A stretch of 64,000 bases of DNA from Octopus vulgaris (Eukaryota), in assembly GCA_951406725.2 (NCBI GenBank), contig OX597817.1, positions 131,812,001 to 131,876,000 of the forward strand. Direction: 5' to 3'. Shown here one piece after another: positions 2,658 to 38,406 of this stretch. The translations under genes and the position numbers were made by a program. Position 1 is the first letter of the stretch. Each line of letters opens with the position of its first letter. The notes below the pieces were generated by a model. That model was not told the DNA's origin and made no database searches. It saw only the letters and a program-made list of their open reading frames with translations.

Positions 2658-3620
2658 TCAGCGACAATCAATAGAAATATCGTTCGGAATTCCAACAGAC
2701 ATCGCATCACAAACAATGAACGTTTTACGGTGAAGATGCCCCAGAATTTTGATATGTAACAGGACTTTAAGACTTGCTTATTGCAAAAACAGAAAAGTCA
2801 AGCGAAGCTCGAAATTCAAATCAACAACTCTCTGTACATGCCTAACTAGTAAGACTTCTGTTGTTATTCTTAATCAAAATTTAAATGATACTTAACATAT
2901 GATCATTTTTTCTGGCGACTATCAAAACTGACGTAAAACTACCTCAGGTTCTGAGGAGATAAATTTATACTAAATGTAGATGTATTTTATATTATCGCAT
3001 CACATGTTCATCCTTGGCGACTGAACTGCCACATAGATATTTTCAACCACACCAGAAAAATAGACCTGTTCTATGGCTGGCAAACAGTTACTCACCACAA
3101 TAATAGAAATATTAGTAAAAGCACTAGTAACGATTCTTCAATATTTTGTCCCTTTCTTTCTCTTCCCTCTATTCTACAGTGGCTATTGAACCTCTCTGAC
3201 AGGAAATTGCATACCCAAAGCTCACCATATTGATTCACCCCTTTGTGGTGGTTGTAAAGCGAGTTTCTTAACAACACCATCACGCCTACGCCTATGTCTA
3301 TATTTATGGATACAACAGTTGTCGTACTTGGAATATTCCGTTGTCTATATTTATTATTTCGATTCTTCGCCTTATTATATGAATTGATTGATCTTTGAAA
3401 TTATGTTCTTGTAATATTTTAGCTAAAATTTATAGAAAATTATATAGTTTAAAAAGTTTGTTTTCTTTTCACCTATATAAGGATCTGGTTAGAAGTTCGA
3501 AATGTGAAGCTTCATCCCTCGTGGGTCTCCGAAAACCGAACGTAAAGAAACGTAAATAAATATCAGTTCTTTACTCACTGCACCATCAATTCTCCAGCAT
3601 CCTTGTTATTCTAACATATA

Positions 3621-19690: not shown

Positions 19691-19875
19691 CATGTGATCT
19701 CTTGAGCACCACCAGCAAAAGTAGTTTTTTCCTCTGTCTTCCCTTCTCGGGATCTTTCCTTCTCCTTGTTTCCGACGAAGAGCTCCGCTCGAAACGTTAA
19801 ACCCTCCTTCCCTTCTTTAATTGTTCCACGTCCTCGCGTTGCTGAGTTTTTTTCTGTGTTTTCTTGTTTGGATTA

Positions 19876-19880
<5 letters not shown>
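19691..19880 (+). mobile_element. Short (TA)n-embedded element, family H1 (putative Penelope pLTR or retrozyme-like)
   Basis: Flanked by (TA)n on both sides; homologous copy in opposite orientation at 24925-25150; contains a hammerhead-like motif. Confidence 0.7.
19768..19802 (+). ncRNA. Minimal type-I hammerhead ribozyme-like motif (U4C core variant)
   Basis: GTTT-CCGACGA-A-GAG-ctccg-CTC-GAAA-CGT-T-AAAC: stem I GTTT/AAAC, stem II GAG/CTC, palindromic ACGT stem III; predicted cut after 19798. Confidence 0.65.
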
Positions 19881-19925
<45 letters not shown>

Positions 19926-24080: not shown

Positions 24081-24562
24081 TTTGACGAAAGTTTTTTAAT
24101 GGATTTGAAGGCACCTGAAAGAAGCCTGTCAAACATAAGTACCTATATAATTGTGTTTATGCGTGTGTGTGTGTGTGTATGTGTGTGTGTGTGTGTTTGT
24201 GTGTGTGTGTGCGCGTGTGTGTGTGTGTGTGTGTGTATGTGTGTGTGTGTGTGTGTGTTTGCGTGCGAGCGCGTGTGTCTTTGCGTTTGTGTTCGTCTCC
24301 TTACCGCTTGACATTTGTTAGCATTGTTTTACTTTTTCACTTGTTTCAGTCATTTTGACTGATAGAATAAGTACTAGGCTTACAAACATTAAGTCTTAGG
24401 GGCGATTTGTTTGACTAAAGGCAGGGGTCCAGCGCGGCAGCAGTCAAAATGACTGAAACTAGTGAAAAAGTTAAACAATACTAACAAATGTCAAGCGGTA
24501 AGGAGAGGAACACAAACGCAAAGACACACGCGTTCGCACGTAAACACGCACACACACACACA

Positions 24563-24924: not shown

Positions 24925-25147
24925 AAAATTAATCCAAACAAGAAAGCACAAAAATAAAAACACAACAACGCGAGGACGTGGAACAAATATAGTATTGTTG
25001 GACGCTCAGGAACGAAGGAAAGAAGGAGGGTTTTAACGCTTTCGAGCGGAGCGAGATCTTCGTCGGAAACATAGGAGAAGGAAAGACAGAGGACAGAGGG
25101 AAGGCAAGACAGAGGAAAAAAAAAAATCCCCAACGGTACACACGCGG

Positions 25148-25150
<3 letters not shown>
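24925..25150 (-). mobile_element. Family H1 element (second copy) with disrupted hammerhead at 25030-25070
   Basis: Minus strand GTTT-CCGACGA-AGA-tctc-GCTCCGCTC-GAAA-g-CGTT-AAAAC; shares TTGTTCCACGTCCTCGCGTTG..TTCTTGTTTGGATTAA with the 19691 copy; (TA)n flanks. Confidence 0.7.
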
Positions 25151-25302: not shown

Positions 25303-25700
25303 TGGCATGTCTATGTGGTAAGAAGTTTGCTTCCCAACCACATGGTTTCGGGTTCAGTCCGGTGCGTATTACCTTGGGCAAGTGTCTTCTGCTAATGTTG
25401 AGCACAGCACTATGACCAGAATTGGATAGGCGGAAACTGAAGGAAGCTTGCCGTATAAATATGCGTGTCTATGTATATTTCTTTGAGTTCTTCTCTCTCG
25501 CCTTGACAACCGATATTGGTTTGTTTACGTCTGCGTAACCTAGGGGTTCGGGAAAAGAGACCAGTAGAGGAAGTACCAGGCCTGAAAGGAGAGAGAACCT
25601 GGGTCAATTCGATTGACTAAAAATTCTTCAGTGTGATGCAACCAGCATTTCACGCCGGGTAATGATTGACACAAGAAAAACAATATCAAATATAAAAGAA
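25303..25700 (+). mobile_element. SINE family B, degenerate
   Basis: TGTGGTAAGAAGTTTGCTTCCCAACCACATGGTTTCGGGTTCAGTCC..CTTGGGCAAGTGTCTTCTG..CCTTGACAACCGATATTGG. Confidence 0.85.
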
Positions 25701-28876: not shown

Positions 28877-29224
<348 letters not shown>

Positions 29225-38034: not shown

Positions 38035-38406
38035 CAGGCGCTGCGTGGGTGTGGTAAGAAGCTTGCTTCACAACCACATGGTTCCGGGTTCAGTCCCACT
38101 GCATGGCACCTTGGGACAATGTCTTCTACTATAGCCTCGGGCCGACCAAATCCCTATTTATATATATATATATATCACCATGATAGACCGCTAGCCACTA
38201 AACCATTTTTTATTCTCTCTCTGTTTATTTTCTCGTGTTCCTTTCTGTTGAAGAGCGTAGGATCGAAACGTAAAAGACTTTCTCACCTTCCCGAACGTTA
38301 AACTAATAAATCTGTTTGTTGTTTACACACATGTCTTTACTTTTTTTGTAAATTCCGACTATATATATATATATATATATTGATTGATAGAGAGAGAGAG
38401 AGAGTG

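Follow-up and report, generated by a model that had tools for sequence, protein, structure and literature searches.

Minimal hammerheads have already been published from the pLTRs of metazoan Penelope-like elements (PLEs; PMC4209133). As far as the available text of that paper goes, they share with the motif described here, which we assign to a repeat family called H2, the pLTR location, a stem I of 4-5 bp, an extra nucleotide that sits between 9 and 10.1, a G10.1-C11.1 pair, a palindromic 15.2/16.2 without a stem III, a U-rich upstream region and an occurrence mostly as solitary, truncated copies. One variant of the core, U3-A8, is described among them. Position 6, however, is A in 44 of 44 rows (of 56) of their Fig. 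S3, in a collection made with a core-requiring descriptor, whereas it is U in H2.

Core-variant hammerheads do occur naturally, including the A6C form of phage Bcep176 and a viroid U4C form (PMC3088659, available text). The Bcep176 ribozyme resembles the H2 motif in bearing a substitution at position 6, but it is a single phage sequence of low activity, whereas in H2 at least 15,954 copies belonging to an autonomous, recently active retroelement have A6U as a fixed feature. The Poseidon PLE of the anole (PMC11167929) likewise has a hammerhead in the pLTR, with the RT start downstream and insertions that keep the motif uncut. The Poseidon motif overlaps the ORF start, whereas the H2 motif lies approximately 790 nt before the ATG of its ORF, and the H2 protein contains a CxxC linker. 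C3 and G8 mutants of the Poseidon motif were tested, and the available text of that report describes no change at position 6. The EN+ PLEs Neptune and Nematis (PMC8557442, in part) resemble the H2 element in having an RT followed by a C-terminal GIY-YIG domain, a CX2-5CxxC linker, (TA)n targets and pLTRs. The function of PLE hammerheads is treated as an open question in the available text of both reports (PMC8557442, PMC11167929).

Elements and motifs of these two kinds are already known. The literature searched contained no family-wide A6U core, although surveys of PLE hammerhead variants may already list A6U, and nothing relevant on an octopus Penelope hammerhead.

A hammerhead-derived motif in the octopus genome

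The window, a microsatellite-rich stretch of 64,000 nucleotides of the Octopus vulgaris genome, contains a discrete repeat of 186 bases at 38176-38361, flanked by (TA)n tracts, together with a second H2 copy (80% identical to the first) and two copies of a sister family, H1. The features are as follows.

38176..38361, plus strand: H2 copy, read as the 5′-truncated 3′ end (pLTR and tail) of a Penelope-like retroelement, between (TA)n tracts
28877..29064, minus strand: another H2 copy, of the A7 subfamily; its motif spans 29005-28970 with U6 at 28998, and the 3′ strand of its stem I is AAAT
19725..19884, plus strand: copy of sister family H1; U4C core CCGACGA at 19772, motif 19768-19802
24925..25150, minus strand: copy of sister family H1, decayed, with insertions in stem II and after GAAA; U4C core at 25066
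38241..38276, plus strand: minimal type I hammerhead-like motif, which apart from position 6 agrees with the consensus of PLE min-HHRs in Fig. S3 of PMC4209133
38241-44 and 38273-76, plus strand: stem I of this motif, CTTT and AAAG
38245-51, plus strand: core, with U6 at 38248 and N7 at 38249
38252, plus strand: extra A
38253-64, plus strand: stem II, in which a C>A change at 38262 disrupts one pair
38265-68, plus strand: GAAA
38268-71, plus strand: ACGT palindrome
38272, plus strand: H17

An earlier, sequence-only reading of the window had reported T at hammerhead position 6 in both H2 copies (38241-38276 on the plus strand and 29005-28970 on the minus strand), and we confirmed this. Its drawing of stem II as 3 bp with a 6 nt loop was wrong; the stem has 4 bp, GAGC/GCTC, closed by a GTAG tetraloop. 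The proposed shift in stem I from GTTT/AAAC in H1 to CTTT/AAAG in H2 is indeed compensatory, but amounts to a single base pair changed on both sides and not to the double change that had been claimed. The downstream TTCCTGAGCGT motif said to be common to the families was found in the H1 copy at 24925 and in the H2 copy at 29005; at this site the 38176 copy reads TTCCCGAACGT. Neither H2 copy in the window is intact, because the C>A change at 38262, which is near-private (present in one other of 36 aligned rows), breaks a pair of stem II, and the 29005 copy ends in AAAT rather than AAAG. An alternative register with TTGAAGA as the core (C3U) was rejected, as it puts U4 on a four-base column and loses stems I and II. 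Judged on its sequence, the H2 motif is a hammerhead-derived variant and not a canonical member: it lacks A6, and retains the remaining core, the stems and the palindrome at 15.1-16.1. An Rfam search of the window gave no hammerhead family among the best 150 of 248 rows.

U6 is fixed in family H2

Exact matching of a 26-base pattern across the whole genome returned 15,954 copies with U6 and none for a reversed control, which shows that the motif is not a chance occurrence. When position 6 was allowed to vary (n=16,568), T accounted for 15,954 matches (96.3%), C or G for 430 and A for 184. Three samples selected in other ways told the same story: T was found in 33 of 36 aligned rows, with three C and no A; in 25/25 motifs among 30 loci chosen by their endonuclease alone; and in 84 of 85 copies, with one A, chosen by a downstream flank word (98 copies, of which 85 had an alignable motif; truncation, deletion or a different type accounted for the other 13). 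U6 is, as had been supposed from two copies, a family trait, and the H2 consensus carries it where a canonical CTGANGA would have pointed to decay.

Decay of a canonical family was rejected on the same grounds, as U6 is present in nearly all genome matches and in nearly all endonuclease-selected, long-ORF and flank-selected copies. A hidden A6 master subfamily found no support: on a flank-only tree of 119 copies, the 31 A6 copies need 24 changes and are scattered, like background mutants. The proportions of the minority bases C:A:G, approximately 374:184:56 when C and G are apportioned from the first 100 listed rows, match a background of 17:10:3. Five A6/T7 copies that cluster in an older H2 subfamily on the flank-only tree are the sole hint of a small, old A6 lineage. 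U6 in unrelated families was also considered and rejected: of 655 matches, 100 were listed, and almost all of those are mutated H2 copies, so that U6 is essentially confined to H2. Among the assembled contigs of four runs (organisms B-E), no position-6 variant of at least 3% was listed; N17 varies in them, but N7 is likewise unlisted, which makes this weak evidence.

Older H2-like copies in two loci (L267 and L268, 1501-1527) have U6 and a UUCG loop II in place of GUAG, and may form an old subfamily of small size.

The rest of the motif is constrained

Across the 85 flank-selected copies, the remaining fixed core positions (C3-G8, U4, G5, A9, G12, A13, A14 and A15.1-U16.1) are each conserved in 78-85 copies, and the other motif positions, U6 included, show the majority base save for scattered, largely CpG changes. 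Two positions vary, in both cases by subfamily: N7 (T28/A26/C18/G13) and N17 (A66/T16/G2/C1, hence A or T in 82/85). With four duplicates removed, a second allele reaches at least 15% in 2 of 36 motif columns versus 58 of 148 flank columns. The subfamily-level Fisher p of 2e-5 to 2e-6 for this difference is overstated by the non-independence of subfamilies and by low-complexity flank columns that are hard to align, and understated by flank columns that the selection pattern itself fixed. The two variable motif columns are N7 and H17, the free core positions of the hammerhead, and this restriction is the strongest sign of continuing selection on a hammerhead-derived RNA structure.

The stems point the same way. 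Seven of nine stem pairs are changed on both sides between families in 15 hand-picked copies, and 87% of cells are paired in this multi-family set versus 9-43% in slid controls, figures uncorrected for relatedness. The earlier claim that the structure is under selection is borne out by these two lines of evidence, the lower variability of motif columns and the covariation of stems.

Both bear on the possibility that the motif is a dead relic, preserved by a DNA-level role (an internal promoter or a pLTR endonuclease site) or simply by too little time for change. In favour of this, Naiad PLEs are reported to thrive without canonical hammerheads (PMC8557442, available text), and pLTRs carry promoters (PMC6765202, available text). 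A relic would nevertheless have little reason to vary solely at N7 and H17, or to change seven of its nine pairs on both sides, and we regard this explanation as improbable.

The host is a Penelope-like retroelement

The earlier reading described the repeat and left its host element unnamed. A DNA search with the 38176 repeat (3292 first-look candidates, 40 scored) brought up longer relatives, in which a low-complexity spacer and, beyond it, a GIY-YIG-like frame precede the repeat. Searching with the GIY-YIG-like peptide yielded 14,353 candidates; 150 of these were scored, and 20 with long frames were fetched. The motif lies downstream of the ORF in 20/20 of these loci, with U6 in all 20, and on both sides of the ORF in five, 4.3-4.6 kb apart, so that full-length copies have U6 in both pLTRs; direct pLTR repeats surround the ORF in 5/20, with 282-904 aligned bases and 0-37 mismatches. 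The single-ORF frames of three loci (L067, L068 and L069) are 1098-1119 aa long and contain YIDD, SLYIGQTG and DKG (DKS in L067). The L069 frame matches RVT_1 (E 1e-7, above the cut-off) and, C-terminal to the RT, GIY-YIG (E 0.0055, below the cut-off), and its pLTRs have no mismatches over 631 aligned bases, with three gaps. The CX2-5CxxC linker between RT and EN reads CSRPRCRTC in L068 and L069. At E<=1e-20 there were 380 protein homologues; those listed have RVT_1 and some also GIY-YIG, those named come from diverse animals, and identity reaches 54-57%.

We identify the element as an EN+ Penelope-like element because its full-length copies combine the RT/GIY-YIG frame, the motifs, the linker, the pLTRs and these homologues. 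H2 copies are 5′-truncated with a fixed 3′ end at microsatellites, and by its sequence the repeat at 38176-38361 is the 5′-truncated pLTR end of an abundant, recently active element of this kind. The linker and the (TA)n targets make the H2 element Neptune-like, although the linker is shared with Nematis (PMC8557442, available text).

Non-LTR retrozymes are non-coding tandem arrays of hammerhead-bearing monomers of 150-400 nt. This identity was rejected, as H2 copies are stubs that derive from a coding element and lie scattered; no tandem array of hammerhead-bearing monomers was found at the locus.

Two of the long-ORF loci have further features. L067 is a full-length element with pLTR motifs at 3282 and 7662. 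Its pLTRs come from different subfamilies, with 37 mismatches over 282 aligned bases, which suggests recombination or insertion into an older copy. At L068:937-3141, on the minus strand, a 734-aa frame beside the PLE resembles an unrelated reverse transcriptase of the LINE type.

Sister families are mostly canonical

The sequence-only reading had proposed core variants in two diverged families. This holds for U6 in H2, but H1 is not uniformly variant, as large H1 subfamilies with canonical CTGACGA exist. The 30 loci that come nearest to the H1 copy of the window contain 30 H1 motifs, 27 of them U4C and three canonical, and canonical-core motifs number 7,650 in the genome against 11 for controls, most of them H1. 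A second family thought from four copies to carry G6 proved to have A6 in 71/76, in keeping with the mostly canonical CUGA of the sister families. No ORF was found upstream of H1 copies in the fetched H1 loci.

This abundance of canonical motifs is relevant to the earlier suggestion that cleavage is rescued in heterodimers, in which H2 RNA would be cut in trans by a canonical H1 CUGACGA, joined through the ACGU palindrome and a 3-bp stem I. Partners would be plentiful, and both ACGU and UUU/AAA are common to H1 and H2. The sole direct support is a chimera (L099:1420-1620) whose upstream flank and 5′ strand of stem I are from H1 and whose loop II and downstream flank are from H2, with its crossover inside the motif. 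Of 300 copies examined, 252 could be classified at both flanks, and this was the one chimera among them; a single chimera can come from microhomology. The fourth stem I pair of such a heterodimer would be a G-G mismatch. More tellingly, the active site of a type I dimer is made of the CUGANGA and GAAA of one strand, so that H1 could at most cut the H2 substrate strand, an unlikely rescue if the dimer model in the available text of PMC4209133 applies. The H2 enzyme half (C3-A9, G12-A14) would then be predicted to decay, but it is conserved as well as the substrate half, and the retention of H2's own core goes unexplained. We consider heterodimer rescue very unlikely.

In several canonical H1 copies the terminal pair of stem I is G-U. 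Another PLE family, which is older (L347-L376), has a canonical core with stem II GGAY/RTCC and stem I CC/GG, and some of its copies are linked to fragments of RT/EN that share 30-47% identity with the H2 protein.

Predicted fold of the U6 monomer

Unaltered natural copies were folded with a nearest-neighbour model, in which differences of only 1-2 kcal/mol separate a mean predicted P(6-15.1) of 0.79 in 65 U6 copies from 0.00 in 21 A6 copies. The predicted helix comprises U4-G16.2, G5-C15.2 and U6-A15.1; by subfamily, the U6-A15.1 pairing ranges from 0.31 in G7 to 0.98 in the U7 subfamilies, the youngest among them. The ACGU palindrome is predicted to be free at 0.40 in U6 versus 0.74 in A6 copies. 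H1 is predicted to hide ACGU in a different register, in canonical and U4C copies alike, so U6 copies are not alone in having a closed monomer. The idea that U4C in H1 reinforces a U6-type helix was rejected (predicted P about 0.01), as were a downstream GAGCG word as second substrate strand or anti-stem-II switch, in part for want of conservation across subfamilies, and a splice acceptor created by U6, the TAG being present in the A7 subfamily only.

The predicted fold allows a reading without catalysis. U6 may have abolished cleavage, with the motif kept as a rod-shaped RNA signal for RNP assembly or RT recognition, built from stem I, the helix 4-16.2/5-15.2/6-15.1, a tandem G-A loop and stem II with its GUAG loop. 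The predicted rod, with its near-complete pairing in U7 subfamilies, would account for fixation of U6 over drift, and loop II GTAG is invariant across H2 subfamilies. The anole PLE inserts normally in vitro when its hammerhead carries catalytic mutations (PMC11167929), and CUGA mutants have low activity (PMC9901934), as far as the available texts describe. Against this, the rod needs none of C3, A14, U16.1 or the restriction of N17 to A/U, all kept at the subfamily level, although with about 39% of flank columns varying such conservation could still arise by chance (roughly 0.2). Moreover, the rod is weak in the G7 subfamily, and the anole template tolerates 5′ truncation to +20, without the 5′ half of the core (PMC11167929, available text). 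Such a signal is possible, though we would not call it probable.

A proposed damped, protein-dependent ribozyme

The explanation that we tentatively prefer to a non-catalytic rod, a DNA-level or neutral relic and heterodimer rescue, while giving it slightly less than an even chance, is that the U6 motif acts as a ribozyme of strongly damped activity, for which cleavage would require dimerisation and the help of the element's own protein. U6-A15.1 pairing would close the monomer into a rod and hide the ACGU palindrome needed for dimer stem III. U6 would also weaken the CUGA U-turn, so that most transcripts would remain uncut and be used as templates. Reverse transcription would start approximately 90-105 nt downstream of the motif, at the TA-rich end, producing thousands of short stubs. 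Residual cleavage, after GUA or GUU, would take place when two pLTRs and the RT-EN protein meet, and would keep C3-G8, G12, A14, U16.1 and the H17 rule under selection.

Two precedents are consistent with a damped ribozyme: the natural A6C hammerhead cleaves slowly yet detectably (PMC3088659, available text), and the anole Poseidon hammerhead is described as cleaving only with the element's protein, and this cleavage as dispensable for in vitro insertion (PMC11167929, available text). Pairwise hammerhead mutagenesis counts against it, as the CUGA-turn mutants covered in the available text of PMC9901934 have low activity, the C-G swap excepted. U6 may even bring activity to nil, because PLE min-HHRs are already slow with a canonical core (PMC4209133, available text), and a closed rod alone would explain most of the core conservation.

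Uncut insertions also weigh against cleavage. All H2 insertions keep the motif and end approximately 90-105 nt downstream of it at a TA-rich end, and 5′ pLTRs run through it uncut, extending 155-800 nt upstream; their templates were therefore presumably uncut or religated. No clear accumulation of 5′ truncation points was seen at the cut site: by hand counts from the first 100 rows listed, 6/31 distinct H2 loci have the 5′ junction there versus 4/31 at another TA, and the corresponding H1 control gave 1-2/24 at the cut site and 10 at a nearby AT (first 100 rows listed), but the junctions are dominated by TA microhomology and so say little about cleavage either way.

A more specific proposal, that U6 is a selected switch by which U6-A15.1 locks the monomer until the RT-endonuclease opens it, gating cleavage to the assembled retrotransposition particle, seems to us rather unlikely. 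If this switch proposal is true, H2 would be the first natural family-wide A6U hammerhead, protein-gated and tuning how much Penelope RNA is cut versus copied. Whichever explanation holds, a very abundant PLE family altered an 'invariant' core base and kept the remaining motif through several expansions, beside canonical sisters. Naturally occurring copies with U6 and with A6 from the same subfamilies, together with intact ORFs, provide a matched set for separating cleavage from fold, and descriptor searches that require CUGANGA miss very large families.

Other repeats in the window

An inverted repeat of approximately 210 bases occupies window positions 24296-24506, where a chance match to a plant miRNA model scored far below the gathering score. 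Just upstream of the 38176 H2 copy, at 38037-38150, lies a short interspersed repeat that, by resemblance, we take to be a tRNA-derived SINE, and a relative of it is present near 25305-25400.
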